58,581 bases of DNA from an uncultured Gemmatimonadota bacterium (GCA_964655785.1 CAZZNP010000003.1:30486-89066), one strand, 5' to 3'; shown: positions 41 through 48,260, numbered from the stretch's first letter. Notes: generated from the letters alone by a model not told the origin. A program made the numbers and translations.

Positions 41-78
41 GCGGTCCCTGGCGGTCCCTGGCGGTCCTGGCGGTCCGG
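41..78. repeat. tandem repeat, 10/10/9/9 bp x4
   Basis: gcggtccctg gcggtccctg gcggtcctg gcggtccgg, lying 6 nt after a TGA that closes a partial ORF at the left edge. Confidence 0.9.
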
Positions 79-85
79 TAAAGGC

Positions 86-201
86 GCAGGCGGCCGATGG
101 CGCCGCTTCATGCGCCCCGGACGCTGCAGCATGTACCCCGGACGCAGGCGGCCGATGGCGCTGCTTCATGTGCCCCGGACGCTACAGCATGTACCGCTTC
201 A
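86..201. repeat. tandem duplication, 58 bp x2
   Basis: Copies 86-143 and 144-201 match over ~52 nt with 3 mismatches. Copy 2 contains the last 6 codons plus the TAG (182-184, minus strand) of the isomerase gene. Confidence 0.85.
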
Positions 202-1048
202 GGTGGGCCCGCGCCCGGACAAAACCCTCTTCCTCGAGTTCCCAGGTGCCATAATAACGCCCGTCCTCGTGCTCGATGCTCAGAATGCCGTCGTATCCGA
301 AATCTTCGAGCCGTTTCATGATGCGCGCCCAGTCGGCGAGGCCCTCGCCGGGAATGCAGTACCGCCAGTAGCCTTCGCCGAAGGCGATCCGGGACTCGAA
401 GGAGGGTTTGATCCTCCCATAGAGATAGAGCGCTTCTTCGTCGAAGACGGTGTCCTTGGCGTGCACGTGGTGGGCCCGGTGTCCGAATTCGTCCAGGAAG
501 CGCATGGGATCCACGCCCAGTCTGATCAGGTGCGAGGGGTCGTAATTGATGCCGAAGGCCGGAGACGGACAGGCCTCGAACATGGCGCGAAGCATCTCGG
601 GGGTGGCTCCGATGCGCTCATGGTGCGTAGATCCCCCGGGCCAGCCCTCGAGGGCGATGGTTGCTCCTCGGGATTCGGCGAAATCCACGATGGCGGGCAT
701 GGTGCGCTTCCACTGCGTAAACGTCTCATCGCGGCCTTGCGCGGGATCCACCGGGGCCGGCGCCACGTAGAACATGTTGGTCACGCCATGATCCACCGCG
801 CGCTGTATGGAATCCCTGGAAGCGCCAAGGGCCTGCTCACGCTGGCCGGAATCATCGCTCAGCAGTTCCGTACCCGCGACCAGGTCCACCTGGCCGATCG
901 CCACGCCGTGTGCTTCGGCGGTCCGGACCATGTCCCCGTCGATCCGGGACACATCGATCGTATCGAACCCCTTTTCGGCCATCCACGCGCATACCGAATC
1001 GAAGGGCATCTCGTTCAATCGGCCCGTAGTGCGGATCCCCACTCTCAT
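182..1048 (-). CDS. sugar phosphate isomerase/epimerase (xylose-isomerase-like TIM-barrel family)
   Basis: 288-aa ATG ORF with family-typical strings GINYDPSHL, HHVHAKD and LSIEHED. The longer overlapping + strand ORF 110..1099 is Arg/Gly/Pro-rich antisense noise. Confidence 0.8.
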   Translation of the reverse strand: MRVGIRTTGRLNEMPFDSVCAWMAEKGFDTIDVSRIDGDMVRTAEAHGVAIGQVDLVAGTELLSDDSGQREQALGASRDSIQRAVDHGVTNMFYVAPAPVDPAQGRDETFTQWKRTMPAIVDFAESRGATIALEGWPGGSTHHERIGATPEMLRAMFEACPSPAFGINYDPSHLIRLGVDPMRFLDEFGHRAHHVHAKDTVFDEEALYLYGRIKPSFESRIAFGEGYWRYCIPGEGLADWARIMKRLEDFGYDGILSIEHEDGRYYGTWELEEEGFVRARAHLKRYML

Positions 1049-1099
1049 CGTGGTACTCCTTCAGGTTTGAGAAAACGTATCAGTTATATGAAAACGTAG

Positions 1100-1127
1100 T
1101 TGACACAACCGCCGGTAAATGTATATG
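1100..1127 (+). promoter_or_regulatory. putative sigma70 promoter of bioY (TTGACA-16-TATATG)
   Basis: -35 ttgaca at 1100-1105 and -10 tatatg at 1122-1127. It is preceded by a direct repeat gaaaacgta at 1071-1079 and 1090-1098. Confidence 0.4.
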
Positions 1128-1211
1128 AACCCGCATGGGGTGGCAAGGCAAAGCAGTCTCACGAAACAGCGCGGGAAACTCGACTCGACCTGAACGAATG
1201 AAAGGTTCATA

Positions 1212-1763
1212 TTGACCAGAAACGTAAAGCTGGCCACGGCCTCGCTGATGGCAGCGCTCACCGCGGTGAGCGCATATATATACCTGCCCATAGGACCCGT
1301 TCCGATCACGATGCAGACCTGCATCGTGCTGATCTCCGGGGCCGTGCTCGGAAGCCGCTGGGGCGCCGGCAGCCAGATCGTCTACGTCTGTCTCGGCCTG
1401 GCGGGCATGCCGGTCTTCGCCGGCGGCATGAGCGGTCCGGGCGTCGTGCTCTCGCCCACCTTCGGATACCTCGCCGGCTTCGTACTGGGCGCGTTTCTGA
1501 CCGGGTGGTATGTGGAGCGGTTCACAAGGCATAGCATATCTCATCTCGCCGCCGGCATGCTGATCGGCCAGGCCGCCATCTTCGTTTGCGGGCTGTTGTA
1601 CCTCTACGCCTACTTCAACTTGTACGCGGGCGTGGAAACCACCTGGCCCGCCACGCTGGCCGCCGGCCTGCTTCCCTTCATTCCTTTAGGACTGGTCAAA
1701 CTCGCCCTCGCGGTTTCCGTGACGCGCGTCCTGGCGAAGTACATCCGGCTTGAAAGCGTCTGA
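1212..1763 (+). CDS. bioY: biotin transporter, ECF S-component BioY
   Basis: 183 aa and very hydrophobic. LPIGPVPITMQTCIVLISGAVLG matches the conserved BioY core (vPiTlQt...G). TTG start, with a sigma70-like promoter 85 nt upstream. Confidence 0.8.
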   Translation: MTRNVKLATASLMAALTAVSAYIYLPIGPVPITMQTCIVLISGAVLGSRWGAGSQIVYVCLGLAGMPVFAGGMSGPGVVLSPTFGYLAGFVLGAFLTGWYVERFTRHSISHLAAGMLIGQAAIFVCGLLYLYAYFNLYAGVETTWPATLAAGLLPFIPLGLVKLALAVSVTRVLAKYIRLESV

Positions 1764-1803
1764 GCCGTCCGTCCGGGTGTACGGGCGCTCCGGCACGTCG
1801 ACT

Positions 1804-1847: not shown

Positions 1848-1928
1848 CCTTAACCCGGTTGGAATGGTGGTTTCAACGCCGACCCCAGAACGAACTACTC
1901 ACGAACAACAAAGACTTCAGGTATCAAC

Positions 1929-3656
1929 ATGACTGATTGGACACGATCGATTCGGGAAGCGTACAGGCGGATCCCGGTTTCTTCCGTGCGGGGGCGCATT
2001 TTCGCCGCTGCGGCATGCCTCTTCGGGTTCACCCTCTGTTTCATGTCGGTGGATGTATCGACCAGCGCCGTCCCCGTGGTGAATTCCATCGGCAAGCCGA
2101 TGCCGCCGGACGCGGCGCCCCTGGACCAGCAGGTGTTCCGATACACGCTGGTCGAGCCGCTGACCTTCGATGTAAGTATCAACATCTACGAAGGCCAGGG
2201 AGCGCTAACGTTGTTCGAACGCCTGGTCATGCTCGACAGGAACCTGGAACTGGTCGGGGCGGCGGCCTCTACGTGGGAACAGTCGGCGGACGGACTGCGC
2301 TGGACGTTCAATCTCCGGCCCGACGGGAAATGGAGCGACGGCCGCAGGGTCACGGCGCACGACTTCGAATACACCTACAAGAGGTTTCTCGATCCGGCCG
2401 TGGCAAGCCCCTACGCCTTCTTCTACTACGAAATCAAGGGCGCCCGTCCTTACAACCAGGGCAGCGTAACCGACCCGTCTACGGTGGGCGTGCGGGCCCT
2501 GGACGATTTCACGCTGGAGATCGAAACGGAGAAACCCTGTCCCTATCTGCCCTTCATCGTCGCGTTCACCGGTTCGGGACCTGTACCCCGTTGGCAGGTG
2601 GAAAAATACGGTGCGCGGTGGAGCGAAGCCGGGAACCTGGTCTCCAACGCAAGCTACACCCTTTCGGAATGGCAAAAGGGCAGGCAGGCCACGCTGACCC
2701 TCAATCCCTACTATACCGGTCCCCACAAGGGGTTTCTCGAGAAGATCGTGCAGATCTTCACCACAGGACATCCGGGTACGCCGCCGTACGAGAACGACGA
2801 GATCGACTATTTGCGAGTTCTGCTGACCGACCTCCCTTTCATCGAGAATCATCCGACCCTGAAATCCGAGCTGGCCTACTACGCCTTCCCGGAAACCTGG
2901 TATCTGTTCTTCAGGACCCGCGAACCACCCTTTGACGATGTCCGGGTTCGGCGCGCGATCAGCCATGCCATCGACCGCGAGGCCCTGTGCAAAGTCGTCC
3001 TGAGAAATACGGGCGTGCCCGCGTACTCGATGCTTCCGCCGAATTTTCCGGGAAGCGCGGACGCGTCCATCCGGCAAGTCCAGGCCTACGATCCGGACCG
3101 CGCCAGGGCCCTGATGGCCGAAGCGGGCTATCCGGAAGGGAAGGGGTTTCCACCTGTAGATTTCTGGATCGGCAAGGCCAATCCCCAGATCAGCTACACG
3201 GCGCAGGCCGTGCAGGCCATGCTCGCCAACACCCTGGGGCTGCGCCTCCAGATTAGAGGTTCGGAGGACAAGGTGTACCGGGACAACATGTACAAGTGGA
3301 ACATCTCCATGGGCCTGGGAGGATTCAACGCGGATTATCCCGATCCCAACAACTTCCTCGGCATGGTATGGCGATCGCAGCCGAGAGGATTCGGGCGGCA
3401 AGACTGGCGCAATGACGAATTCGACCGGCTGATCGACGCGGCGGCGGACGAAATGGACCACGAAAAACGCATGGAAATGTACCGGCAGGCGGAGTGGCTG
3501 CTCGCGGAAGACGCGGGCGGCGCGTTCCTGTATCACAACTTGACGGTTGATCTGCGAAAACCCTACCTGAAAGGGCTCGAAGTGAACAAGTTCGGATATA
3601 CGATGTTCTCGTGGATCGGCGTCATGCACACCAGGATGTATATCGCCCGGCACTGA
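1929..3656 (+). CDS. ABC transporter substrate-binding protein, family 5 (peptide/nickel, OppA/DppA-like)
   Basis: 575 aa with an N-terminal hydrophobic anchor (IFAAAACLFGFTLCFMSV). Typical family-5 strings: FNLRPDGKWSDGRRVTAHDFEYTYKR, LTLNPYYTGP, GGFNADYPDPNNFL. No permease or ATPase gene is adjacent. Confidence 0.8.
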   Translation: MTDWTRSIREAYRRIPVSSVRGRIFAAAACLFGFTLCFMSVDVSTSAVPVVNSIGKPMPPDAAPLDQQVFRYTLVEPLTFDVSINIYEGQGALTLFERLVMLDRNLELVGAAASTWEQSADGLRWTFNLRPDGKWSDGRRVTAHDFEYTYKRFLDPAVASPYAFFYYEIKGARPYNQGSVTDPSTVGVRALDDFTLEIETEKPCPYLPFIVAFTGSGPVPRWQVEKYGARWSEAGNLVSNASYTLSEWQKGRQATLTLNPYYTGPHKGFLEKIVQIFTTGHPGTPPYENDEIDYLRVLLTDLPFIENHPTLKSELAYYAFPETWYLFFRTREPPFDDVRVRRAISHAIDREALCKVVLRNTGVPAYSMLPPNFPGSADASIRQVQAYDPDRARALMAEAGYPEGKGFPPVDFWIGKANPQISYTAQAVQAMLANTLGLRLQIRGSEDKVYRDNMYKWNISMGLGGFNADYPDPNNFLGMVWRSQPRGFGRQDWRNDEFDRLIDAAADEMDHEKRMEMYRQAEWLLAEDAGGAFLYHNLTVDLRKPYLKGLEVNKFGYTMFSWIGVMHTRMYIARH

Positions 3657-3660
3657 GCCT

Positions 3661-3700
3661 GTTGTCCGACGAGGCCGTTGTCCGACGAGCCGTTGTTCGC
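3661..3700. repeat. tandem repeat, 16/15 bp x2.5
   Basis: gttgtccgacgaggcc gttgtccgacgagcc gttgttcgc. It spans the annotated TTG start (3678) of the first PhyH gene. Confidence 0.85.
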
Positions 3701-8262: not shown

Positions 8263-9270
8263 ATGGCCACCATTCCCATGCGCAATACTCCGCCGGATCA
8301 TGGTATAAGGGTGCCGTACGGAGTCCATAAGGACTTCATCACGCAACTCTTCGTAGCGGCCGGCATGAACCCTGATGAAGCCGGGCTGATGGGCTGGATC
8401 CTCGCCACGGCCGACAAGCGTTGTGTGTACAGTCACGGCTCGCAGCAGGCACTGGGGTACCTGCCGAAGCTCCGCGGCGGCAAGGTGAACCCGCGCCCCG
8501 AGGTTACCGTGGTTCGCGAATCGGAGACCGTCGTGGTCCTGGACGGGGACGGCGGCATGGGGTACGGTCCGTCCCATCGGGGTATGGAGACCGCCATCGA
8601 AAAAGCGCTCATCCACGGCCTGGGAGCGGCCACTACTCGAAACCACAATCACTTCGGCGCCGCCGGGAACTACTCCCGCATGGCCCTCGAACACGGGTGC
8701 GTGGGATGGGCGCTGTCCACCCACCGCATCGCCCTGGATCCGAATAACGTGATCATGTCCGCAAGCGGCGGATCTCCCATGAGCCTGGCTTTCCCGACAC
8801 GGAACCAGCCTCCCCTGGTACTCGACATGGCCGCGGTCTTCATGAGGTACAAAGACGAACTTTTCCAGGAATACTATGCCCTGTTCGCCAAGAGCCTGGG
8901 TCTTGCGGTCGCCCTGCAGGCGCTCGGTGGCATCCTGGCCGGCATCTGGAGACCGGAATTCCAGCCGCCGCAAACAGAACGGGAATCCAACCAGGGCGCG
9001 TTTCTGCTGGCCATGAAGATCGATCACTTCATGGACCTGGACGAGTTCGAGCGGTCGCTGGACGATTTCGTATCACAGGCGAGGGCAATGAGGCCATTCC
9101 CGGGCATGCCTCATGCGGAACTGCCTGGCGGCATGGAGTGGCGGTGGGAAAAGGAAAACGAGGAGAAAGGGGTGCCGTTAAGCGACGAACACCGCGCGAA
9201 GCTGGAGGAAATCGCGGAATCGTTTAACGTAAAACCGCCCTACGGTGCTTACGAATCCACGCGATATTGA
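8263..9270 (+). CDS. Ldh_2 family oxidoreductase (malate/L-lactate/ureidoglycolate dehydrogenase-type)
   Basis: 335 aa with SHGSQQALGYLPKLRGGKVNPRP, DGDGGMGY and TRNHNHFGAAGNY, all typical of the Ldh_2 family. Its stop codon lies inside tandem repeat 9251-9410. Confidence 0.8.
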   Translation: MATIPMRNTPPDHGIRVPYGVHKDFITQLFVAAGMNPDEAGLMGWILATADKRCVYSHGSQQALGYLPKLRGGKVNPRPEVTVVRESETVVVLDGDGGMGYGPSHRGMETAIEKALIHGLGAATTRNHNHFGAAGNYSRMALEHGCVGWALSTHRIALDPNNVIMSASGGSPMSLAFPTRNQPPLVLDMAAVFMRYKDELFQEYYALFAKSLGLAVALQALGGILAGIWRPEFQPPQTERESNQGAFLLAMKIDHFMDLDEFERSLDDFVSQARAMRPFPGMPHAELPGGMEWRWEKENEEKGVPLSDEHRAKLEEIAESFNVKPPYGAYESTRY

Positions 9271-9410
9271 CGGCCTCTGCGCGCCTTACGAATCCACGCG
9301 ATATTGACGGCCTCTGCGCGCCTTTCGAATCCACGCGAATTTGACGGTCTGGGTGCCTTTCGAATCCACGCGAATTTGACGCTCTGGGTGCCTTTCGAAT
9401 CCACGCGAAC
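9251..9410. repeat. tandem repeat, 37/37/36/35 bp x4.4
   Basis: Units sit at 9251, 9288 (identical), 9325 and 9361, plus a partial at 9396. Unit 1 carries the last 6 codons and the TGA (9268-9270) of the Ldh_2 gene. Confidence 0.9.
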
Positions 9411-9877: not shown

Positions 9878-9961
9878 GGATTGTCCTGGCTCTCCGTTTC
9901 AGGGTTGAGGCTTACGAATTCGGTTAACTATCTGAAATTAATGAAGTAAATAGTTCTCATT

Positions 9962-10082
9962 TCAAGCGGCGGGCTCATCAGGCGGCGGCCCCGTCAAGCG
10001 GCGGGCTCATCAGGTGGCGGCCCCGTCAAGCGGCGGGCTCATCAGGTGGCGGCCCCGTCAAGCGGCGGGCTCATCAGGTGGC
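9962..10082. repeat. tandem repeat, 32 bp x3.8
   Basis: tcaagcggcgggctcatcagg(c/t)ggcggccccg at 9962, 9994 and 10026, with a partial at 10058. It ends 4 nt from the OMP gene stop (10087-10089). Confidence 0.9.
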
Positions 10083-10086
10083 CTCC

Positions 10087-10626
10087 TCAACCGCCCACCC
10101 TGAAACCCACCATGGCGTAAACCGCGGTCGTGCTCACGCCCTTTTCCAGGTTGATGTATCTACCCTCGATCCCAACGAACACCATGCCGAGCGACGCTCC
10201 GATCAGAACGCCGGGTTGCGCGTAATAGGTGTTCGTGGTCCTCGTGATGTCCGTCCTGGTATCACCGTTCTGTTCTACCGTCTGCTCCGAATCCTGTGCC
10301 CGCCCCACTCCGATCATTGCACGCACGAGTATGGGCGACGAAACCACCGTCACGCCCGCGTCCAGGCCATACAGGAGCAGGGATTTCTCCCCGTCGCCCT
10401 CCGATGGCGCAAGGTGGTAGGTCGCTCTCGCCCCGACATGAACGGTCCTGATGCCGGTCGGCAGGTTCAACATTACGCTGCCGCCCCCGCCTCTTTCGTA
10501 TTCTTCCGTGGCCTGTCCGCCGTGAAGGCCGAATTCTGCGCCCTGGGCCTGGACCAGTTCCGGAGCAACGGCAGCCATAAGCCATATCAGAATGGCCGCA
10601 CGACGGATAGACTGCTTCAGGGTCAT
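10087..10626 (-). CDS. outer-membrane beta-barrel protein (porin/OmpW-like small barrel)
   Basis: I start at ATG 10626, which gives a signal peptide (MTLKQSIRRAAILIWLMAAVAPELVQAQ). The protein has alternating beta-strand hydrophobicity and ends in aromatic-rich AVYAMVGFRVGG. The upstream extension to 10704 runs through a tandem repeat. Confidence 0.6.
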   Translation of the reverse strand: MTLKQSIRRAAILIWLMAAVAPELVQAQGAEFGLHGGQATEEYERGGGGSVMLNLPTGIRTVHVGARATYHLAPSEGDGEKSLLLYGLDAGVTVVSSPILVRAMIGVGRAQDSEQTVEQNGDTRTDITRTTNTYYAQPGVLIGASLGMVFVGIEGRYINLEKGVSTTAVYAMVGFRVGG

Positions 10627-10815
10627 CGCTTTTTCCCGGTCCATTACATAATCATCGCCGATTCCGGACCATCGCGTGGTCATCGCCGATTCCGGACCTT
10701 TCACGTAGTCTCTTCCAATCCCGGTCCATTACATGATCATCGCCGATTCCGGACCATCGCGTGGTCATCGCCGATTCCGGACCATCACATGATCATCACC
10801 TATTGCGATCCACGC
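10621..10815. repeat. composite tandem repeat (28-bp unit x3 exact or near-exact, one 57-bp expanded unit, degenerate ends)
   Basis: tcatcgccgattccggaccatcgcgtgg at 10652 and 10737, with variants at 10680 and 10765. The first degenerate copy contains the OMP start codon (cat 10624-10626). Confidence 0.85.
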
Positions 10816-17966: not shown

Positions 17967-17988
17967 GTTTCCAGCCTGTTTCCAGGTC
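17967..17988. repeat. tandem duplication, 11 bp x2
   Basis: gtttccagcct gtttccaggtc, about 45 nt upstream of the RraA-family start on the minus strand. Confidence 0.7.
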
Positions 17989-27819: not shown

Positions 27820-27842
27820 TCGGCCATGTTTGATCGGCCATG
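27815..27842. repeat. tandem duplication, 14 bp x2
   Basis: tttgatcggccatg x2. The first copy contains the TGA (27817-27819) of the Gfo/Idh/MocA gene. Confidence 0.9.
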
Positions 27843-27846
27843 TACG

Positions 27847-27897
27847 ATAACCTGCCATGAGCGATAGCCTGCCATGAGCGATAGCCCACCATGAGCG
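27847..27897. repeat. tandem repeat, 17 bp x3
   Basis: ataacctgccatgagcg atagcctgccatgagcg atagcccaccatgagcg. The third copy carries the hydantoinase-A ATG (27891). Confidence 0.9.
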
Positions 27898-34454: not shown

Positions 34455-35438
34455 CTATCCGCCATCCTCGAGCTGCACCAGTGCGTCCAGTACGTCCTGA
34501 TGGATAAATTCTTCGTAAGCATCCCGCACCGGTAGTTTGGCAGCCTTAGAAAGCAACGCCCCGGCCCGCTCCCGGCCGCTGTCTCGATCGAGTTCAGGAA
34601 GCCTGAGCGCATACTCCAGCAGCACGACCTTCGAGTCCGGTGCGAGTTCCAGGGCCCGTTCGTAATGGGCGATGGCGTTCTCGCGGTTCGCCTTGTACAT
34701 GAACCGGGCAATCCGTCCGGCGCGGGCAATGTCGGCGTGCCAGCCCCCGAAGGCCATGTGCGCCTCGGCGAAGTCGGGATAGACGGCAAGCGTGGCCTCG
34801 AGCAGACTGCGGGTCCTGCCCGCCAGACCTCGGCGAAGCGCCGTCAGCGTACCGACAGTCTGGGCATACCGGCCGACGGCGTGCGCGGACTGGTAATACG
34901 CTTCGTAATTGGTCGAATCGGCGCTCACCGCCTCCTCTCCGAAATTCATCGCCCGTTCCAGGAACCTCTTCCTTTCATCCCCGGTCGCCACATGATGGCC
35001 GTACACTGCGAGCGATTGCGCTGCCAGGGCGTAGCCTTCTGAGGTCCCTAGGGCTTCCGCGAGATCCGCCGCCTCGAGAAAGCGGCCTTCCACGAATGCG
35101 GCTGTTGCCTCATCGATCGGCTGCGCGTCGATACCGCTTGAGTCGGCTGCGACGCTTGAGTCGGCTGCGACGGTTGAGTCGGCTGCGACGGTTGAGTCGG
35201 CTGCGACGGTTGAGTCGGCTGCGACGGCTGTACCGGTTGGTTCCGCCTGGACAGCCGGGTCGGCTGCGACGGCTGTACCGGTTGGGTCCGCCTGGCCAGC
35301 CGGGTCGGCTGCGACGGCCGGGTCGGCTGCGACGGCCGGGTCGGCTGCGACGGCCGGGTCGGTCCGGCCGTCCAAGCTGACCGCGAGGAGCACGATTGGT
35401 CCAAATGCCGCGATGAGGAAAAAGCGGGTAACGGTCAT
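34455..35438 (-). CDS. secreted/anchored helical-repeat (TPR-like) protein with repeat-encoded low-complexity N-terminus
   Basis: 327 aa with an N-terminal hydrophobic segment (FFLIAAFGPIVLLAV). This is followed by (AADPAV)n, (AADSTV)n and a ~220-aa all-helical region (NAIAHYERALELAPDS). It starts 18 bp downstream of the P450 fusion gene on the same strand. Confidence 0.6.
   Translation of the reverse strand: MTVTRFFLIAAFGPIVLLAVSLDGRTDPAVAADPAVAADPAVAADPAGQADPTGTAVAADPAVQAEPTGTAVAADSTVAADSTVAADSTVAADSSVAADSSGIDAQPIDEATAAFVEGRFLEAADLAEALGTSEGYALAAQSLAVYGHHVATGDERKRFLERAMNFGEEAVSADSTNYEAYYQSAHAVGRYAQTVGTLTALRRGLAGRTRSLLEATLAVYPDFAEAHMAFGGWHADIARAGRIARFMYKANRENAIAHYERALELAPDSKVVLLEYALRLPELDRDSGRERAGALLSKAAKLPVRDAYEEFIHQDVLDALVQLEDGG
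35137..35370. repeat. nested in-frame intragenic tandem repeats (18 bp x5, 45 bp x2, 18 bp x3)
   Basis: The core gtcggctgcgac recurs 9 times. It encodes AADSTV / AADPAV / AVAADPAVQAEPTGT repeats of the TPR-like protein. Confidence 0.9.
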
Positions 35439-35456: not shown

Positions 35457-37490
35457 CTAGGAGGCGGGCAATTCGCGCAGTTGCTCGGCGACGCGAAACT
35501 TCAGCTTCTTGCTCGGTTTCATGGAAGGAAGCGGACCGAACTTGAGCTTCCAGTCTTCCGGATACACCTCGAGCCTGAAATAACGCGCGACCATCAGCAC
35601 ATTCACCGCAAGCTGCAATTCCATCCACCGGTTGCCCAAGCACGTGTGGGTACCCAGTCCGTAAGGCGTGTACGCGCCGGGTGTGCGATGCTCGTTGCGT
35701 GGGGGGAGATAGCGGTCGATATCGAACTTATGGGGTTCCGGAAAATACTCTTCAAAGTAGTGTGGAGCCGTTTGGGCGATATGGACCTTCGTCCCCACCG
35801 GCAATTCATAGCCCTCGACCATACAGGTATTCATCACGTGACGCATGGACATGGCGATGATGGGGTGGATTCGCAGACTCTCCATGATGAAGCGGTGGGT
35901 CACGTCGATTTTCGCGGGGGTAAGGTCCTCCCCGGCCGGATCGCCGTTCTCGAACAGAGCGTCCGCTTCTTCGCGAATCCTATCGCAGAGATCGGGATGC
36001 GACGCCAGGGCGTACACCGTGAAGCTGAAGGCGTCACCCAGGTACACGCTGGCGATCAGCGCCGCGGACAGGGCGAAACGCAGGTTCGACTCGGGCACGA
36101 ACTGCGGATCGCTCGCGTGCAGGCTCAGCCAGTCGTCGGCGAGGTTCCGGGGACAGCCGCCCCGCTGAGCGGGCGTGTGAACGCTCTGAATCCGCTGCAG
36201 CAACGTGTCGACGGCTTTCGCGCGGCGCTTCATGCCCGGCGTATTCAGCATGAACTTGGGCAGAACCCGGACGATGTGCGTATTGAGCGCCCGTTCCTTG
36301 TAGGACATGAGATCGTCGATGATGTCCTGCGTGTCGACGCTGACCGAAAGCGGCGAAATCCGGCTATTGATCATCAGGTGGCACATCCGTCTCGCCTGAA
36401 AGACCTCCCCGACCTTCCAATGCGACATGAATCCGCGGGCGTGCTTGTACAGCTGATCCAGCTGGGCGGAAAGTCTCGCTCGCGAATAAGCCGGCGACAT
36501 GGCCTTGCGCAGCCTGAAATGATCGCCGCCGTCTAGGGAAGGCAGTACCCCGGATGCGCCGTAGACTTTTTCGAAGTCGGCGAAATAGTCCCTGGCTCTC
36601 AAGTACATGCGGCCGTGCCGGTGCGTCCATCGATTCACGTCCGTCCCGGCGATGAAGTACAGGCGCTTGCCGAAGGGCCGGCGGATCGCGAATACCGGGC
36701 CGTATTCCCAGGTCAGCTCGGCAAAGAACGCGGTGATGTTCCCGGTCCGGGTATTAGGATTTAACAGCAGCTTGCCGAGCGAAATTGTCGGGATTTCCTT
36801 GGTCAGGTGGGACCGCCGAAGCAATGGCCCTGCAATGTTCTGCTCGACGGCTGCGGCAATGGAGCGGCCGATCAGGTCCATCTGGCAGATGGCCTTGATG
36901 CGTTCCTCCGCTTCTTCATCGAGTTGGAACATGAAGCGCAGGACGTCGCAGGTGTTGATGAGGCAGATTACGATGACGTCTCTCGGATCGGGGATCTCGT
37001 TCATGAAGATCGCCCGGCTGATCCAAGTTCTGATGAACTGACTCGCCGTGCCCGGTTCGGCGTCGTCGTACAACTCCGACTCCCAGTCGGTCCGGGCCAG
37101 CGTCCAGAACTCGCCTTCGTGATGTTCCAGGATCTTCACTTCGACCAGGCGGTCCAGCACCGAATCGATGGCAGACTCCGCGCGCGGAACGAGCCTTTCG
37201 ATCCAGAACCGCGTGTTATGCTGGCTCGAATCGCTTGCGATTTCTTCCAGAATGGGGTCGATGGTGGGATTGCCCGTAGGCGTCTGGTCCAGGAGGAACA
37301 GGTATTCCACGTCCGTGTCGATGCGGGACCTGAGTGAAAGCTCCGCCAGCACGGCGCTGACCACGGCGCAGTTCAGGTTCCAGCCAGGCACCTGGTGGAA
37401 GTAGCCCGTCTCCTCGTTGAGGAGCGCCAAGATGAGCTCCTGGGTCAACGTAAGGGGTTGGGTTTTCGCACCTGGTGTAGTCACTGACAT
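35457..37490 (-). CDS. GPP34 (GOLPH3-like) domain - cytochrome P450 fusion protein
   Basis: 677 aa from ATG 37490. It has an N-terminal GPP34 pattern (ELILALLNEETGYF...AVVSAVLAELSLRSRID). The C-terminal P450 has ExxR (ESLR) and a heme Cys loop (YGLGTHTCLG). Confidence 0.8.
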   Translation of the reverse strand: MSVTTPGAKTQPLTLTQELILALLNEETGYFHQVPGWNLNCAVVSAVLAELSLRSRIDTDVEYLFLLDQTPTGNPTIDPILEEIASDSSQHNTRFWIERLVPRAESAIDSVLDRLVEVKILEHHEGEFWTLARTDWESELYDDAEPGTASQFIRTWISRAIFMNEIPDPRDVIVICLINTCDVLRFMFQLDEEAEERIKAICQMDLIGRSIAAAVEQNIAGPLLRRSHLTKEIPTISLGKLLLNPNTRTGNITAFFAELTWEYGPVFAIRRPFGKRLYFIAGTDVNRWTHRHGRMYLRARDYFADFEKVYGASGVLPSLDGGDHFRLRKAMSPAYSRARLSAQLDQLYKHARGFMSHWKVGEVFQARRMCHLMINSRISPLSVSVDTQDIIDDLMSYKERALNTHIVRVLPKFMLNTPGMKRRAKAVDTLLQRIQSVHTPAQRGGCPRNLADDWLSLHASDPQFVPESNLRFALSAALIASVYLGDAFSFTVYALASHPDLCDRIREEADALFENGDPAGEDLTPAKIDVTHRFIMESLRIHPIIAMSMRHVMNTCMVEGYELPVGTKVHIAQTAPHYFEEYFPEPHKFDIDRYLPPRNEHRTPGAYTPYGLGTHTCLGNRWMELQLAVNVLMVARYFRLEVYPEDWKLKFGPLPSMKPSKKLKFRVAEQLRELPAS

Positions 37491-38044: not shown

Positions 38045-40042
38045 ATGAAGATGCGATTTACCGAAGAACTGCTCCTTTTGCTTCACAGTGAAGAATCGGG
38101 TTATTTCGTTCCCATACCAGAATGGCAAATGTCCTGTGCTATAGCAGGCAGCGTGCTTATGGAGCTTGCTCTGGAAGAGCGCATCGACTCCGACCTGGAA
38201 TCATTGGTTCTGACCGATGCGACTCCGACGGGCGATGAGTTGCTTGATCCTACGCTCCAGGAGATAGTGCAGGGAGATAAAGTTCAGACTCCGCAGTACT
38301 GGGTTGAACGCATCGCTCGAAGGGCGGATGACATCAGCGATGCCGCTATAGACCGCCTGGTGAAAGCGGGTATTTTCCAGTCTGATGAAGGCGGATTCTG
38401 GACCCTGACCACCAAGGTAACCCGGACAGGTCGATATCCCCTGGTAGATGGAAGGGCGGGTGAAGAAATAAAAAGCCGGATCATGCGCACCCTGCTAGAC
38501 GACGAGATTCCACATCCTCGCGACATAGCCATAATTGGCCTCGTCAACTACTGTGGCGGGTTCAGGGCCATGATGGAGCCCGAAGAGTACGAGTGGGCAA
38601 AAAACCGCATTGAGCTCTTAAGCAGGATGGACCTGATCGGACGGGCTATCGGCCCGGCGGTACGCAGCTCCTACCGGCCGCCCGAGAGCATGCGCGCCGG
38701 CAGACGCCGTCCAATGCCTACCGTGAGTCTTTGGGAGTTGATTTCCTCCAAAACGGTCAGGGCGGGGAACTTCCCCAAGTTCTTTGCCGAGAAAAACAAT
38801 GAGCTTGGTGCTGTTTTTCGACTCAAAGTACCCGGACGGAAGCTCGTTGTAATATCTGGGGTCGAAATGAACAAGTGGGTCGGCAAGAAGGGCCGATTAT
38901 ACTTGCGGACTCGCGACTACCTGGAAGGATTTCAAACAGAGTGGGGTACGGCGAGGTCCGTTGCGAGCATGGACGGAGCGGACCACTTCCGCATGCGTAG
39001 GGCCGTACGGGCCGGTAATTCCAGACAGGTTGTCAGCGATCGGCTCCACGAACTGATTGCGGTCATAAGGCGCTCATTCCGCGAATGGGGAATCGGTAAC
39101 ACCATGCCGGGTGAAATGACCTGCCAGCGGTTCATAGGAAGACAGATCGCCGAGCTAAGCGTAAGTACGGATGTCGCCACCGATGTCCTTGATGACCTTC
39201 TCACGTTCGAGTACCGTGCACTGATGGTCCATGTACACAAGCTCCTGCCCAAATTCATGATACACACGCCTAGGATGAACCGGTATCGAAACCGCGTTCT
39301 GGACTTGTATGCACAGATCCACGCGTCTCACACGCCGGGGCAAAGAGAAGGAAAGCGGCGAGACCTGGTCGATGACTTGATGGAACTGCATCAATCCGAT
39401 CCGCAGTTTCTCCCGGAGACCGACCTGGGATTCGCTTTCATTGCACCGATCATCGCTGGACACTACACCGGAAGCGCGATGGGTTTTGCCATTTATGAAC
39501 TGTTGAAAAACCCACACATCCGGGAACAGATCGCCGCTGAAGCGGATGCGCTGTTCGAAGGCGGCGATCCGACCGCTGAGGATCTGACCCCTGCGGCTAT
39601 CGACGCGACCCACCGGTTCATCATGGAGGTCCTGCGGCTGCATCCGGTCATCCCGGTGCATTTGCGCACGGCCATGAATTCCTTTGAAGTCGAAGGCATT
39701 GAAGTACCGGCCTACAGCGAGGTCCTGGTAGCTTTCCCGGCAACGCATTACATGGAAAGGTACTTCGCGGAGCCGGAAAAGTTCGACATCGACCGGTATT
39801 CCGAGCCCCGAAATGAACACCGGCAGACCGGCGCATACAATCCCTTCGGCGTGGGTACCCACATGTGCGGCGGCTCACGCTGGACCGAATTGCAGATGGC
39901 CGCCAACGTACTTCTAGTCGCACGCCACCTGGAATTGGAACTGGTACCCAGAGATTACGAACTGAAGTTGAGTTCCCTTCCTAAAATCTGTGCCAACAAG
40001 GCGTTCAAGTTCCAGGTCCTGACACACAGGCATCCCATTTAG
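38045..40042 (+). CDS. GPP34 (GOLPH3-like) domain - cytochrome P450 fusion protein (paralogue)
   Basis: 665 aa with EELLLLLHSEESGYF...AIAGSVLMELALEERID. The P450 has an I-helix IIAGHYTGS, ExxR (EVLR) and a heme loop (FGVGTHMCGG). Codon usage is visibly AT-richer than in flanking genes. Confidence 0.8.
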   Translation: MKMRFTEELLLLLHSEESGYFVPIPEWQMSCAIAGSVLMELALEERIDSDLESLVLTDATPTGDELLDPTLQEIVQGDKVQTPQYWVERIARRADDISDAAIDRLVKAGIFQSDEGGFWTLTTKVTRTGRYPLVDGRAGEEIKSRIMRTLLDDEIPHPRDIAIIGLVNYCGGFRAMMEPEEYEWAKNRIELLSRMDLIGRAIGPAVRSSYRPPESMRAGRRRPMPTVSLWELISSKTVRAGNFPKFFAEKNNELGAVFRLKVPGRKLVVISGVEMNKWVGKKGRLYLRTRDYLEGFQTEWGTARSVASMDGADHFRMRRAVRAGNSRQVVSDRLHELIAVIRRSFREWGIGNTMPGEMTCQRFIGRQIAELSVSTDVATDVLDDLLTFEYRALMVHVHKLLPKFMIHTPRMNRYRNRVLDLYAQIHASHTPGQREGKRRDLVDDLMELHQSDPQFLPETDLGFAFIAPIIAGHYTGSAMGFAIYELLKNPHIREQIAAEADALFEGGDPTAEDLTPAAIDATHRFIMEVLRLHPVIPVHLRTAMNSFEVEGIEVPAYSEVLVAFPATHYMERYFAEPEKFDIDRYSEPRNEHRQTGAYNPFGVGTHMCGGSRWTELQMAANVLLVARHLELELVPRDYELKLSSLPKICANKAFKFQVLTHRHPI

Positions 40043-43224: not shown

Positions 43225-44492
43225 GGGGTCAGTTCCGCTTCCGACTGGACGCGCATGCCGTCCGTGGCAAACTGGATTCCGCCGGTGACGACGACCTGGC
43301 CGCTTTCGAGTGTCCCGGTCGCAGTACCCGTCACATAGGCCTTGTCGCCGCTGCGCTGCAGCACTTGGACCTGGACGATCCCGACCGTGCCGCCATCCTG
43401 TACGGTCCAGACCTCGTTTCCGGTTCGCAGCGCCGCTCGCGGCACCAGGAAATAGTCGTCCATTTCACGGCCCTCGATTTCCACCTCCACAAACTTGCCT
43501 ACCAACAGGGGGGAACTAACGCCGATCGGTACCGTGCCGTCTGTCGGCCGTCCTGCTCGAAGCGGGTCCGGCACACGGACGATTACGTCGATGGTACGCG
43601 TCTGACGGTCGAGGTGCGCCTCACCCCGGTCCACGTAGCCGTTCCAGACATAGGATCCCTCGCCGAAACGGCCGAAGACGCGCGCCGTCACGTGTCGGAT
43701 ACCGTCACCGGCCATAAGCGACCACAATCGCGGAATCAGGGCGGCGTCGGAATCGGACAGCGGCACAGAAATCTCCACGGCATCCGCCGAGTGAACCCGC
43801 GCGACGGGCTGGCCAGGCGCCACGATCCGGCCCACGTCCACGGATTCATTCTGTACGAAACCGTCGAAGGGTGCGGTTATCCGGGTCCGGGACAGGGCAA
43901 GCCTGGCGTCTGCAACCCTGGCCTCGTCGCGGGCCAACGCGGCCTGGGCCGCTTCAAGTTGCGGAGTTCTCAGCGCGAGTGGATTCGCGTCGCCGAGTGT
44001 AGACGCATTGGTAGGTGTAGACGCATCGTCGGACGAGGACTCGCTGCTACGCAAAGTGGTATAAAGTTCGTGTTGCGCGCGAGCTATCGAAGCCTGTTCC
44101 TTTTCTTTCAGCAACGCAACCCGGCTGGCCGCGAGATTGGCCTCAGCCTCCTGCACCAGGTACTGATAATCGACTTCTTCGATGCGGAAGAGCGTATCGC
44201 CCGCCGCGATACGGCCGCCGCTCAGGAATCCCGGGTCGACCCACACGACCCGGCCACCCACCTGCGGAACGATGTCGACCTCGGCGCTCGGCCGTACGGT
44301 GCCCGATCCGAATACGGGTATGGGTCCGGACCCGGCGGTGACCACGCCGGTCTGCACAAAGGGTATCTGGGGCGGCTGTTCCGTGCGCGTCGGTTCAGGG
44401 GCCAGTGAAATCAACAGGGCGGCGATCGCCACGGAAACGCCGAGAATGCCGCCGGCAACGAGAAAGCTGGTTAAACGCGACATGGAATTCAC
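43221..44492 (-). CDS. RND efflux periplasmic adaptor (membrane fusion protein)
   Basis: 423 aa with an N-terminal anchor, a coiled-coil hairpin (AEANLAASRVALLKE...LEAAQAALARDEARVADARLAL) and beta-barrel segments. It is translationally coupled on both sides. Confidence 0.85.
   Translation of the reverse strand: MNSMSRLTSFLVAGGILGVSVAIAALLISLAPEPTRTEQPPQIPFVQTGVVTAGSGPIPVFGSGTVRPSAEVDIVPQVGGRVVWVDPGFLSGGRIAAGDTLFRIEEVDYQYLVQEAEANLAASRVALLKEKEQASIARAQHELYTTLRSSESSSDDASTPTNASTLGDANPLALRTPQLEAAQAALARDEARVADARLALSRTRITAPFDGFVQNESVDVGRIVAPGQPVARVHSADAVEISVPLSDSDAALIPRLWSLMAGDGIRHVTARVFGRFGEGSYVWNGYVDRGEAHLDRQTRTIDVIVRVPDPLRAGRPTDGTVPIGVSSPLLVGKFVEVEIEGREMDDYFLVPRAALRTGNEVWTVQDGGTVGIVQVQVLQRSGDKAYVTGTATGTLESGQVVVTGGIQFATDGMRVQSEAELTP
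43997..44032. repeat. in-frame intragenic tandem duplication, 18 bp x2
   Basis: gtgtagacgcattggtag gtgtagacgcatcgtcgg. It encodes DASTPT/NASTLG in the RND adaptor. Confidence 0.8.
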
Positions 44493-46030
44493 TCCGTTGG
44501 GGGACTGGAGGGAGGACGCCGGTCCTGTTGCCGCAACCGGAGTGCCTCCAGGTCGGCGGCGGTCCAGGTGCCGCCCAGTGCGCGGTGCAGGGCCAGGCGG
44601 GCGTAACCCAGATCCCGCGCCGCCGCCGAGAGAACCGACCGCGCAGCGAGACGGGATTGCTCCGCCGACAGGAAAGCTTCGTATTCACCCACGCCCGACA
44701 GGTATTTTTGTTCCTGCAACAGGGATTCGGCCCGGGTTTCTTCGGAAAGGGACTCAAGCAGCGCATGACGCGCGCGGCTGGCCTCCAGCGCCAGGAGGGC
44801 GGTCTCTACCTCGTTGACCGCGGTGACCACGGAACGTCCATAAGCGGCGGCCGCCTCGTTCAACCTGGCCTCCGCCAGCGCTATGTTCTTGCGAAGGCGC
44901 GAGCCCTGGAAAACGGGGCCGAGCAGGTTCGCCGTGAGGTTCCGGAACCACTGATCCGGATCGAACCATTCGCTTGAATCCGTAGTCTGCAATCCGATCG
45001 CGCCCTGCAGCGACAGCCTCGGCAGCAGGTCCGCCCGGCGCGCGCCCACAGAGAACCGCGCCGCCTCTACGCGCTGCATGGCCGCGAGCACGTCGGGCCG
45101 CTGCATCATGAGATCTGCTGGGATGCCGGCGGGAACGGGATCAGACAACGCGGAGGGAGAAGGCGCGTCGCAGAGCAGGTGCGCGAGGTCGGCCCGGAAG
45201 CCGCCCATGAGTATCCACAGCCTTCCCTCGGCGTCCGCGCGCAAGGCTTCGATTAGCGGAAGTTCGGCCTGGGCTTCACGCAGACTCCGCCGCGCCGCGT
45301 GGAGGCCGGCCAGGCCGGCCAGCCCGCTTTCATACCTCGATTCGGCCAGAGATTTCAGTTGTGCCAGGACGTCCGCGATCTCACCGGCGTGCCGCTGCTG
45401 CACGCGCAGGTTTGCGATTTCCAGGTAGGTGCGGACCGTCTCGGCCAACACCCCCATTTGCGCGCTGAGGTAGTCCGCCTCCGTAGCCACCAGTTCGGCT
45501 CCCGCGGCGCGCGCGTCGTTGCGGTTGCGGCCCCAGAAATCGAGCTCATAGGCGAATTCCACGCTCAGGGTATAGGTCGTCAAACCGAGCCGGTCGGGGA
45601 TATCCACGCCGGCCGCGCTCAGCGACTCCGGGTCCAGACCGACTTCTTCCAGTTGCGCGCCGATGCCGGCATTCGTCGGACCGTCGAATTCGTTTACGCT
45701 CACGGACGGCTGCAGAAGCGGAAACACCGTCGACCCGGCGATTCCGTGACGCATCCTGGCCTGCTGCACACGGGCAACCGCCCCGGCCAGGTCGAAATTG
45801 GAGGACAGCACCTCTGCGATTACTCGGTCGAGGACCGGATCTTCGTAGGATTTCCACCACTCCAGCGGCTGGTAGGCACCGGAATCCACCCCGGTGGTAA
45901 ACGCTGAGGGAGGCTCCGGCACGGATTCGAGTACAGCGAGATTGCGGCTCGTAGCCAGGGAACAGGCCGTCAGGAACAGGCACGCGATCAGCGAAATGAA
46001 CCGTCCCATGTTTGAGATGAACCGTCCCAT
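44489..46030 (-). CDS. efflux outer-membrane factor lipoprotein (TolC/NodT family)
   Basis: 513 aa with a lipobox (FLTAC) and duplicated coiled-coil OEP repeats. The start codon is duplicated by a 21-bp tandem repeat, so the alternative start is 46009. Confidence 0.85.
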   Translation of the reverse strand: MGRFISNMGRFISLIACLFLTACSLATSRNLAVLESVPEPPSAFTTGVDSGAYQPLEWWKSYEDPVLDRVIAEVLSSNFDLAGAVARVQQARMRHGIAGSTVFPLLQPSVSVNEFDGPTNAGIGAQLEEVGLDPESLSAAGVDIPDRLGLTTYTLSVEFAYELDFWGRNRNDARAAGAELVATEADYLSAQMGVLAETVRTYLEIANLRVQQRHAGEIADVLAQLKSLAESRYESGLAGLAGLHAARRSLREAQAELPLIEALRADAEGRLWILMGGFRADLAHLLCDAPSPSALSDPVPAGIPADLMMQRPDVLAAMQRVEAARFSVGARRADLLPRLSLQGAIGLQTTDSSEWFDPDQWFRNLTANLLGPVFQGSRLRKNIALAEARLNEAAAAYGRSVVTAVNEVETALLALEASRARHALLESLSEETRAESLLQEQKYLSGVGEYEAFLSAEQSRLAARSVLSAAARDLGYARLALHRALGGTWTAADLEALRLRQQDRRPPSSPPTE

Positions 46031-46031
46031 G
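45996..46031. repeat. tandem duplication, 21-bp period x2, containing a start codon
   Basis: atgaaccgtcccatg at 45996-46010 and 46017-46031. On the minus strand this gives MGRFISN-MGRFIS at the N-terminus of the TolC-family lipoprotein. Confidence 0.9.
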
Positions 46032-46112
46032 ATACCATTCCGGGTTCAGGACCTCTTTTACATTCACGGTCACCGTTCGTTCGAATCGTGTTGCCGAAAG
46101 GAAAACGGTCCG

Positions 46113-46148
46113 GCATAACTTTGGAACTTGGCATAACTTCGGAACTTG
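46113..46148. repeat. tandem duplication, 18 bp x2
   Basis: gcataactttggaacttg gcataacttcggaacttg. Confidence 0.85.
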
Positions 46149-46269
46149 GTAAGATTACTATACTATTCCATAAAGAAAAGGGTCAAGGGTCAAATAGCTT
46201 CCACCCGGTGCTTGTCGCGCCACGCCGGCCGGCAGGCAACCGGGATTGAATGGCGTTGACAGACGGTTA

Positions 46270-46298
46270 TTGACAAATTCCCGCGCAACCGCTAACAT
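46270..46298 (+). promoter_or_regulatory. putative sigma70 promoter of the ECF A/T genes (TTGACA-17-TAACAT)
   Basis: -35 at 46270-46275. The -10 at 46293-46298 lies in the first unit of the 35-bp repeat array. Confidence 0.4.
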
Positions 46299-46424
46299 GC
46301 CCGCGGTAAACATGCCCGCGCAACCACTCACATGCCCGCGGTCTCCATGCCCGCGCAACCGCTAACATGCCCGCGGTAAACATGCCCGCGCAACCGTAAC
46401 ATGCCCGCGGTAAACATGCCCTGC
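46280..46424. repeat. tandem repeat, 35/35/35/34 bp x4.1
   Basis: cccgcgcaaccgctaacatgcccgcggtaaacatg at 46280 and 46350 (identical), with variants at 46315 and 46385. The 10-mer catgcccgcg occurs 8 times. The array lies between a TTGACA box and the ECF ATPase start. Confidence 0.9.
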
Positions 46425-46459
46425 CACATTCGGCGCAATTCCTTCACTTACCGGGTCTT

Positions 46460-48151
46460 TTGAATCAGCCGATCCTCACGCTCAGCGGCCTCGCGTTCAC
46501 CTACCGGGGCGACTCCAATCCCGCGCTCGACCAGATCAGCTACAGTCATCGTCGCGGTGAGTTCACGGTCATCGTCGGCGAGACAGGCGCTGGAAAGTCC
46601 ACCTTGTGCCGCTGCCTCAACGGACTGATCCCTTCCTTCGTCAAGGGCAGGCTGGAGGGCAGTCTGCAGGTAGCTGGCGGACCGGAGTCCGCCCATCCCC
46701 AGGTCTATGAACTGGCACGGATCGTCGGCCTGGTCTTCCAGGACTTCGAGGCGCAGCTGTTCTCCACCAACGTGGAACTGGAAACCGCTTTCGCGCTCGA
46801 GAACTTCGCCGTGGACCGCGAAGGGATGCGAACCCGCGTCGAACAGGCACTGCGCCGGGTCGGCCTGTCGGGCTTCGAGCAACGGGATCCTTCCAGCCTT
46901 TCGGGTGGCGAGAAACAGCGCCTTGCCATCGCGTCGGTACTCGCGGGCAGACCCGCGATAGTCGTGATGGACGAACCGACGACCGATCTGGATCCCGTGG
47001 GGAAAAGGGACATCTTCCGACTCGCCCGGGTTCTCCGGGATGAAATCGAAGGGATCATCCTGGTCGAGCACGAGACAGAACATGTCCTTGGCGCGGACAG
47101 GATCCTGTTGATGCACGAAGGGCGTATCGTCCTGGAGGGGCCGCCCGGCGAGATCCTGGCAGATCCCGAACGCGTGGAACGGCATGGCGTCCGGCCGCTC
47201 CAGACCACCGTACTGTTGTCCATGCTGGGCCTCGAGACCGACGCGTTGACTATCCGGGACGCGGTATCCCGTATCCGTTCGGCCGGATGGCGCGTCAAGG
47301 ACTCCGCCCGGGAAAGCCTGAACGGCGCGCGGCAGCGAGCGAAGCGCGAGCCGGTCGTTCGCATCAAGAACCTGGTCTTCAGATACGGGGATTCCCCACC
47401 GGCCGTGGACGGCGTATCGCTGGATATCATGGCCGGTGAATTCGTTGCGCTGGTCGGACAGAACGGCTGCGGCAAGACGACGCTCGCCAAGCATCTGAAC
47501 GGACTGCATCTTCCCACAGGCGGCGAAGTCGGGGTCCTGGGCAAGTCCACCACCGAATGGACCCTGCCCGATCTGGGACGCCGCGTGGGCTACGTATTCC
47601 AGAATCCGGATCACCAGATTTTCGCCAATACAGTCTGGGACGAAGTCGCCTTCGGCGCACGTAACTACGGTTTCTCCGAAGAAATGGTCAGGGCTCGGGT
47701 GGACGAGGCGCTGGCCGAGACCGGGCTGTCAGGCCGCGATCTCGAGGACCCTTTCAACCTGACCCGCGGTGAGCGGCAGCAACTCGCCGTGGCCTCGGTG
47801 CTGGTCACGGCCCCCGAGATACTCGTCCTGGATGAACCGACGACCGGGCTGGATTATCACGGCCAGGTCGCCATACTGAACCTGATCCGGCGGCTCAACG
47901 AATCCGGTCGAACCGTGGTGATGATTACCCACTCCATGTGGGTCGTCGCCGAGTATTCCGACCGCTGTGTCATCATGTCGGGCGGACGCATAGTCCAGGA
48001 TGGAGACGTCCGGTCGTGTTTCAACAACCCGGATCTACTCGAATCGCTGTACCTGGAAGCGCCAGAGGCAGTGCGCATCGGGTATGAATTCGGACTCGTG
48101 GCGCGCTCCGTCCGGGAGATTGCCGACTGCCTCGAGCGCCCGGCCGGTTAA
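46460..48151 (+). CDS. ECF transporter ATPase, fused EcfA1-EcfA2 (two ABC domains)
   Basis: 563 aa with a TTG start. It has Walker A x2 (GETGAGKST, GQNGCGKTT), signature x2 (LSGGEKQR, LTRGERQQ) and Walker B x2 (VVMDEPT, LVLDEPT). Confidence 0.85.
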   Translation: MNQPILTLSGLAFTYRGDSNPALDQISYSHRRGEFTVIVGETGAGKSTLCRCLNGLIPSFVKGRLEGSLQVAGGPESAHPQVYELARIVGLVFQDFEAQLFSTNVELETAFALENFAVDREGMRTRVEQALRRVGLSGFEQRDPSSLSGGEKQRLAIASVLAGRPAIVVMDEPTTDLDPVGKRDIFRLARVLRDEIEGIILVEHETEHVLGADRILLMHEGRIVLEGPPGEILADPERVERHGVRPLQTTVLLSMLGLETDALTIRDAVSRIRSAGWRVKDSARESLNGARQRAKREPVVRIKNLVFRYGDSPPAVDGVSLDIMAGEFVALVGQNGCGKTTLAKHLNGLHLPTGGEVGVLGKSTTEWTLPDLGRRVGYVFQNPDHQIFANTVWDEVAFGARNYGFSEEMVRARVDEALAETGLSGRDLEDPFNLTRGERQQLAVASVLVTAPEILVLDEPTTGLDYHGQVAILNLIRRLNESGRTVVMITHSMWVVAEYSDRCVIMSGGRIVQDGDVRSCFNNPDLLESLYLEAPEAVRIGYEFGLVARSVREIADCLERPAG

Positions 48152-48236
48152 GCACGGACCGAAACAGGCCGCTGCGGGACCATCGGTCCGGCTTCGCGGA
48201 CTGTGCTGGCATATTTCAGGCAAGCCCGGCCGCCCA

Positions 48237-48260
48237 CCGGGCCGCTCGCCGGGCCGCCTG
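48237..48260. repeat. tandem duplication, 12 bp x2
   Basis: ccgggccgctcg ccgggccgcctg, in the ecfA-ecfT spacer. Confidence 0.75.

Follow-up and report, generated by a model that had tools for sequence, protein, structure and literature searches.

Dense short tandem repeats, very probably genuine minisatellites, in a chromosomal stretch of an uncultured Gemmatimonadota bacterium

The DNA analyzed here, referred to below as the window, is a single contig stretch of 58,581 nt from an uncultured Gemmatimonadota bacterium (GCA_964655785.1 CAZZNP010000003.1:30486-89066), and our subject is the series of short tandem repeat arrays that lie between and within its genes. The genes themselves are ordinary chromosomal ones and include ECF and ABC transporters, dehydrogenases, hydantoinase A/B, an RND efflux system with its outer-membrane factor, prolyl-tRNA synthetase and citrate synthase. 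Its gene order is conserved in the closest genomes, which show 79-84% protein identity on hydantoinase A; these are metagenome-assembled, and several of them are complete bacterial chromosomes of 3.7-3.9 Mb. The original prediction had described short tandem duplications that are pervasive and concentrated on gene starts and stops. Arrays were counted using Tandem Repeats Finder (TRF) at a score of at least 50 and a period of at least 7, with overlapping rows merged. We obtained 13 arrays in 58.6 kb, 8 of which scored at least 150. Head-to-tail units of at least 7 nt were seen at the arrays both by TRF and in a unit-by-unit print-out, and the units abut directly. The arrays are given below together with smaller or weaker duplications (CDS, coding sequence; RBS, ribosome-binding site).

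41-76, no strand assigned: 10 nt x3.7, at the tail-to-tail junction of an AhpC stop and an AP-endonuclease stop (TRF score 65); exact in the independent assembly L041
85-201, minus strand: 58 nt x2, unit 2 covering the final codons of gene 182-1048 and its TAG stop (182-184); identical in L041
1800-1841, no strand assigned: 21 nt x2, intergenic between a BioY gene and a solute-binding-protein gene; found by TRF and in the run assemblies
3655-3696, plus strand: 16 nt x2.7, beginning in the TGA stop of the solute-binding-protein gene and lying 5' of the RBS and start of the first PhyH gene
9244-9409, plus strand: 37 nt x4.6, the unit being the final 24 nt of the Ldh_2 CDS, TGA and 10 nt downstream
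9962-10082, minus strand: 32 nt x3.8, a 16-nt sub-repeat followed by near-perfect 32-nt units, ending 5 nt from the stop of gene 10087-10644
10634-10804, minus strand: 28 nt x5.4 with a higher-order 85-nt repeat, including the start codon region of gene 10087-10644
17695-17823, minus strand: in-frame 27/30 nt x4.4 in an RraA-like gene, where it gives AAQEDDRDPL-type repeats in the protein's N-terminal extension
21765/21820: 19-nt unit at 55-nt spacing, a real duplication that is not tandem
25357-25520, plus strand: 54 nt x2.4 (18/32-nt sub-structure), beginning in the TGA stop of gene 24299-25360 and occupying most of the following spacer
27814-27843, plus strand: perfect 14 nt x2 (x2.1 by TRF), the unit being the GFO/IDH/MocA TGA stop, spacer and ATG
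27837-27897, plus strand: 17 nt x3.4, each unit running from what used to be a stop codon through 8 nt of spacer to nucleotide 7 of the hydantoinase A gene
35138-35362, minus strand: in-frame 18- and 45-nt arrays encoding ADPAVA / ADSTVA repeats right after the signal peptide of the secreted TPR-like protein 34455-35438
43997-44026, minus strand: 12-nt match at 18-nt spacing (43997/44015), an in-frame duplication within an HlyD-like gene
45993-46031, minus strand: 18-nt unit at 21-nt spacing (45993/46014), an in-frame duplication around the start codon of the outer-membrane efflux gene
46112-46149, no strand assigned: 18 nt x2.1, intergenic between two divergently starting genes
46280-46421, plus strand: 35 nt x4.1, 5' of an ECF-type ABC ATPase gene, repeating the -10 region and transcript start
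48228-48258, no strand assigned: weak 12 nt x2.6, intergenic (TRF score 48)

TRF recovered duplications at nearly all of the coordinates originally proposed. Those at 43997, 45993 and 21765/21820 are smaller but real, and the one placed at 48237 is present, although weak, whereas the duplication at 17967 is a mere 8-nt match and is unsupported. Successive rounds of duplication, which had also been proposed, are observed as layered arrays, with sub-periods of 16 and then 32 nt at 9962 and of 28 and then 85 nt at 10634. As anticipated, the arrays remodel sequence: 3' and 5' untranslated regions (UTRs) are lengthened, a -10 region is duplicated at 46280, directly 3' of a promoter-like site (TTGACA-17 nt-TAACAT), and coding arrays add acidic or Ala/Pro/Thr-rich low-complexity segments that form protein linkers. 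Where an array duplicates a start region, the choice of start codon is ambiguous (26761/26791, 8263/8311 and 46009/46030); at the first two a codon-usage gene caller disagrees with the gene calls of public contigs, and the third alternative comes from the listing of open reading frames (ORFs).

Every unit is unique and locally derived, many of them running from a stop codon across a short spacer into the following start codon. This bears on the idea that the arrays belong to a dispersed mobile family, such as mycobacterial interspersed repetitive units (MIRUs), repetitive extragenic palindromic (REP) elements or clustered regularly interspaced short palindromic repeats (CRISPR). Small ORFs within MIRU units overlap stop and start codons by 4 nt, through which translation of the gene that follows can remain coupled, and this architecture is thought to allow MIRUs to occupy start codons with little effect on expression (PMC12548453). 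The operon-junction sites and stop/start overlaps of the window resemble this arrangement (PMC12548453): like MIRU variable-number tandem repeats (VNTRs), the window has tandem units between operon genes of a high-GC genome with strain-variable copy number, and at 27840-27894 the unit ORF overlaps the downstream start by 4 nt. However, MIRU is one dispersed, apparently mobile family with units of 40-100 bp, whereas each window array is unique and its units match the ends of adjacent genes. When the units were compared all against all and with the window, they formed no common family, and none of them recurred in the window outside its own array. A mobile family is thus hardly credible, and a CRISPR array was rejected because the units abut without unique spacers between them. 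There were no Rfam matches at gathering thresholds, and ten arrays folded no better than shuffled sequences (z-scores of -1.5 to +2.2); these results ruled out a role as structured RNA, terminator or REP-type element. A link to CATG or methylation sites was considered, as several units contain CATG; its presence is explained by C-ATG start contexts and the TAACAT -10 box.

The repeat density of the window was compared with that of shuffled and unrelated DNA. Fifty dinucleotide-preserving shuffles of the window gave a mean of 0.34 arrays and a maximum of 2, against 13 in the real sequence. Eight unrelated loci of 54-71% G+C (175 kb) contained 9 arrays scoring at least 50 and none scoring at least 80, and 50 kb each of Sinorhizobium meliloti pSymB and Escherichia coli K-12 contained 2 and 1 arrays at that lower score, none of them reaching 80. 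A TRF score of 50 discriminates poorly: three loci of 67-70% G+C (L026, L027 and L032) held about 2 arrays per 10 kb at this threshold and none at 100 or above. Higher thresholds and G+C-matched controls were used for the density comparison. At a score of at least 100, we observed 8 arrays in the window (1.4 per 10 kb) versus 0 in about 275 kb of unrelated controls. This confirms the proposal that repeat density exceeds that of unrelated high-GC DNA and of shuffled sequence: the window really is dense in short tandem repeats, and unusually so. A 2025 survey of 5,374 prokaryotic genomes found tandem repeats to be enriched intergenically, 3' of stops and 5' of starts, and rare in coding DNA (PMC12418385). 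The window shares with VNTRs in general its head-to-tail repeats near gene ends and is set apart by their density.

Arrays make up about 2.5% of window length and 17% of its intergenic DNA. Their G+C content is 64.6% (A, 16.7%), compared with 61.9% in coding DNA and 52.9% in the other intergenic DNA of the window. Array composition is thus near the coding value and unlike that of other intergenic DNA, which fits units copied from gene ends.

The original prediction had likened the repeats to those of Borgs, the giant linear extrachromosomal elements associated with Methanoperedens archaea. Ten Borg genomes contain 460 perfect-repeat regions, amounting to 0.62% of the DNA or about 0.5-0.7 per 10 kb, and the host Methanoperedens at most 0.01% (PMC9879509). 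By the Borg criterion for a perfect repeat (at least 50 nt, at least three units, zero mismatch), the window has three perfect regions lying in two arrays, one of these arrays being that at 9962-10082, which is perfect over 9984-10082. This corresponds to 0.51 per 10 kb and 0.40% of the 58.6 kb, which would make the comparison a fair one in numbers for this stretch; close relatives average 0.10%. In both systems there are many arrays, each with its own unit, with partial units at the flanks and some arrays beginning in the end of an ORF (PMC9879509). Arrays within ORFs have periods divisible by 3 (always, in Borgs) and add repeats of low complexity, frequently to secreted or membrane proteins; different repeats arise independently in homologous proteins, and assemblers break or collapse at arrays (PMC9879509). 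Unlike Borgs, the window belongs to a bacterial chromosome, with 61% G+C and no adenine bias in its arrays. Furthermore, about 85% of its arrays are non-coding versus roughly half in Borgs, and most are imperfect, some being common to several species and not uniformly recent. Tandem repeats are usually seen as a minor force in prokaryote genome evolution, and Borgs were put forward as conspicuously different. Over the 58.6 kb covered here, the density of perfect repeats on an ordinary bacterial chromosome would come close to theirs.

We then considered where arrays lie relative to genes, pooling the window with 19 related loci. Periods were divisible by 3 in 20 of 21 coding arrays, compared with 13 of 40 non-coding or boundary arrays (33%, the random expectation). 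The frame rule of the original prediction, under which intergenic units are unconstrained, is therefore correct in the window and extends to its relatives. Intergenic DNA makes up about 10% of these sequences and holds two thirds of their arrays. In the window itself, 11 of 13 arrays touched intergenic DNA against 2.4 expected under random placement (P<5e-5), and 10 of 13 lay within 50 nt of a CDS boundary against 3.0 expected (P=5e-5), an enrichment that the original prediction had suggested testing by permutation.

Comparison with relatives allowed the history of individual arrays to be followed. In about 20 related genomes, labeled Gemmatimonadetes, Gemmatimonadota or Candidatus Latescibacterota, arrays occupy the corresponding junctions, but units and copy numbers differ from genome to genome, and several relatives retain the single-copy state. 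Names of the relatives' isolates suggest sponge and coral sources; the clade would be one of uncultured marine bacteria living with invertebrates. A search of the literature found no prior description of such repeats in sponge symbionts, Latescibacteria or Gemmatimonadota.

The clearest series was observed at the junction between the GFO/IDH/MocA and hydantoinase A genes. Eleven relatives have a compact state (stop, 8 nt, ATGAGCG), and others carry one to four extra 17-nt units, each exactly stop codon, spacer and ATGAGCG. In the window, two 14-nt units are followed by three 17-nt units. In a neighbor-joining tree, the window falls together with L007 and L009, which have the most copies and whose DNA is only about 85-86% identical to that of the window over the two hydantoinase genes. 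Since the 17-nt array is common to all three at this distance, it must be old and evolving in concert rather than fresh. The series thus leads stepwise from an 8-nt operon junction to a 70-nt repeat tract, both proteins remaining unchanged. As an observation apart, the distant Phycisphaeraceae locus L026 (55% protein identity on hydantoinase A) has a 7 nt x8 array at 9943-9998, just 5' of its own hydantoinase A start, which may be a coincidence or reflect a repeat-tolerant gene start.

The 17-nt units also form 6-codon mini-ORFs (MYDNLP, MSDSLP and MSDSPP), in which each TGA overlaps the next ATG as ATGA, the last at the hydantoinase start (27840-27894). This relay occurs in L007 and L009 as well, where L009 has four ORFs in a perfect relay, and the mini-ORF chain would preserve translational coupling. 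No 4-nt stop/start overlap relay was seen at the other arrays of the window. Retention of the relay in three genomes is one point in favor of arrays being kept as useful tunable spacers, in the manner of contingency loci, that adjust coupling, UTR length, promoter output or linker length; the same junctions are moreover occupied in several lineages, and linker repeats fall in secreted or N-terminal segments. However, the relay follows automatically from a 17-nt period and an ATGA at the gene start. Many relatives function without the array, the RNAs are not predicted to be structured and units are not conserved across lineages, so that maintenance for such a function appears improbable.

Coding arrays likewise differ between lineages. 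Four orthologues of the secreted TPR-like protein, of 246-248 amino acids (aa), have no repeat, and others have DANAQS x12, DANAQA x12, ANAQSD-type units or duplicated signal-peptide segments, all directly after the signal peptide. A secreted protein has thus acquired different linkers in different lineages. Orthologues of the RraA-like protein carry different in-frame arrays at the N-terminal site, with periods of 9, 18 and 45.

For the left part of the window, syntenic loci were retrieved with the Ldh_2 protein. Between the solute-binding-protein stop and the PhyH start, all four compared genomes have a 15/16-nt array. The Ldh_2 stop is also occupied in all four, by arrays that differ in their units, each derived from the genome's own CDS end. 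At the junction orthologous to 85-201, relatives have just 12-31 nt. Arrays at both stop and start of gene 10087-10644 were found in the window and L047 only, among the four compared genomes: L047, which is the same genome as L009, has a 16 nt x5 array across the orthologous stop and a 20 nt x4 array upstream of the orthologous start, and L050 has a bare 14-nt spacer at the stop. The gene itself (minus strand) encodes a conserved protein of 176-199 aa without Pfam match that is present in all syntenic relatives. At 19701-19704, a LarA-like gene and a GFO/IDH/MocA gene stand end to end with a 4-nt overlap in the window; in at least seven relatives, arrays with periods of 16-48 nt occupy this junction (L050, 14861-14994; L007, L009, L012, L013, L020 and L021, about 1740-2150).

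Repeats are a classic source of assembly error. Between the window and contigs assembled separately from six runs (SRR8304770, 771 and 783-786), identity is 99.7-100%, and four short arrays (41, 85, 1800 and 3655) were reproduced without gaps in these per-run contigs. Contig ends fell inside four long arrays (9277 in three runs, 17783-17807, 25423/25468 and 35140/35185), as expected where real repeats exceed the word size of the assembler. The sole length difference was at 27837-27897, which is one 17-nt unit shorter in three runs. Although such a difference between assemblies might point to an artefact, the shorter allele has a 31-nt word absent from the window, which must therefore exist in reads. 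Point substitutions also distinguish the units, and complete-chromosome records of relatives hold arrays at the same sites. Artefact, raised as a caveat in the original prediction, is accordingly not supported, as the separate assemblies reproduce short arrays and break inside long ones, and we consider it practically negligible as an explanation.

Turnover was observed among close strains. L050 and L051 are assemblies of one species, 97.8% identical; the eight indels that separate them over 16 kb all lie in or beside arrays, and copy number differs stepwise between strains and species. Over the same 22 kb, L006, L008 and L016 have 0 arrays, whereas L009 and L021 have six each; L047 has nine in 21 kb, so that L009 and L047 together have 15 in 43 kb. 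High density is a trait of part of the clade, namely, of the window's genome and of L009/L047.

On this basis, the arrays are very probably genuine VNTRs (minisatellites) on an ordinary bacterial chromosome, shaped by local birth, turnover through slippage and a selection filter. They are a dense case of known genome instability and not a new mechanism. Slipped-strand mispairing is the usual attribution for bacterial VNTRs. In a first step, a local segment of 10-58 nt would be duplicated head to tail, most likely by slipped-strand mispairing or template switching. Slippage or unequal exchange would then expand, contract and homogenize the array. Out-of-frame arrays in coding DNA would be lost, and in-frame ones would persist only where the protein tolerates them, for example in an N-terminal extension or in the linker that follows a signal peptide. 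Finally, a duplication across a stop, or across a stop-spacer-start junction, would leave both proteins intact and so could persist. Replication slippage, template switching and unequal exchange are the standard explanation for bacterial VNTRs, which the Borg paper also cites (PMC9879509).

The selection filter has a consequence for the placement of arrays. Ancestral spacers were tiny (8-30 nt at several junctions), so that surviving units would almost inevitably contain a stop or a start, and the proper null comprises all duplications without effect on the proteins. The gathering of arrays at gene boundaries is mostly survivorship in a compact genome: the concentration on starts and stops put forward in the original prediction holds as positional enrichment but is mostly a by-product of survival. 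Several observations weigh against this account or limit its reach. With uniform breakpoints, collapsed window spacers and the observed unit lengths, about 29% of duplications should cross a CDS boundary under the null, and we observed 6-7 of 12, a mild excess (P roughly 0.04-0.1). In the pooled 533 kb, 19 arrays span a stop only, 3 a start only and 1 both, and 32 are intergenic without a boundary, but these stop and start counts are pseudo-replicated, being dominated by few junctions common to related genomes. The asymmetry of stops over starts could mean that, besides selection, gene 3' ends act as a hot spot; it also fits the notion that a longer 3' UTR is harmless and that separating a promoter or RBS from its start codon is not. 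Boundary enrichment beyond survivorship was therefore not adopted, the excess being merely mild, and the asymmetry is not claimed as independent evidence. Microhomology at young two-copy arrays is 0-2 nt and is uninformative on the initiating mechanism. In addition, the final 10 kb of the window (48-58 kb, housekeeping genes) has no arrays, and density across the genome is an extrapolation from 58.6 kb.

The claim in the original prediction that the duplication rate is unusually high was not supported, since most arrays are imperfect and at least one is common to three species only about 85% identical in DNA; the high density could as well stem from long persistence or weak selection. Apart from the regions perfect by the Borg criterion, arrays mostly have 75-96% matches in TRF. 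An ordinary duplication rate combined with weak purifying selection, in which a host-associated lineage of small effective population accumulates slightly harmful intergenic expansions, would account for such imperfect and partly old arrays, for the array-free housekeeping region and for the wide differences in density among sister species. Three regions are nevertheless still perfect, the indels of conspecific strains are confined to arrays, which indicates ongoing turnover, and the strict frame rule indicates that selection is still effective. Weak selection is thus a possible explanation, though one that we judge less probable than not.

The richness of this genome and some of its sisters could stem from more mutational input, for example through a repair or exonuclease defect, or from weaker purging. 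A dedicated, lineage-specific repeat generator (an unusual polymerase or nuclease, or lost mismatch repair or single-strand exonucleases), parallel to the process in Borgs, would fit the Borg-like density of perfect repeats (PMC9879509), the sharp difference between sisters with no arrays and L009/L047, and the recurrence of stop-spanning arrays. However, Pfam revealed no candidate gene in the window, and the arrays lack a signature in composition comparable to the adenine bias of Borg repeats; such a generator seems quite improbable. It is also doubtful that part of the clade has a heritable, switchable state of hyper-duplication, with a Borg-like density of perfect repeats and births preferring gene 3' ends and operon junctions. 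If true, this state would provide a natural experiment for genes controlling minisatellite birth, and the Borg phenomenon would not be specific to Borgs. Sister species with complete chromosomes that range from none to very many arrays over the same 22 kb could serve a search for a minisatellite determinant. In practical terms, the arrays fragment short-read assemblies and mislead gene callers on start codons.

Two further regions of the window were noted. The segment 11249-16968 is a variable insertion site. In the window it holds a sulfate permease with STAS domain and then two ORFs at a lower G+C (57%), one of them TPR-like, with at most a weak sub-threshold Pfam match. In L050 the site (12039-12236) is empty between the gene without Pfam match and the RraA-like gene, and in L047 (12587-19104) it contains ankyrin-repeat, Big_2/LRR and ion-channel genes, including eukaryote-like repeat proteins. 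The genes 35457-37448 (minus strand) and 38159-40042 (plus strand) are paralogues whose products begin with a GPP34 (Golgi phosphoprotein 3) domain and end with a cytochrome P450 domain, an unusual fusion for bacteria; they are divergent, and the roughly 700 nt between them are low in G+C (55-57%).

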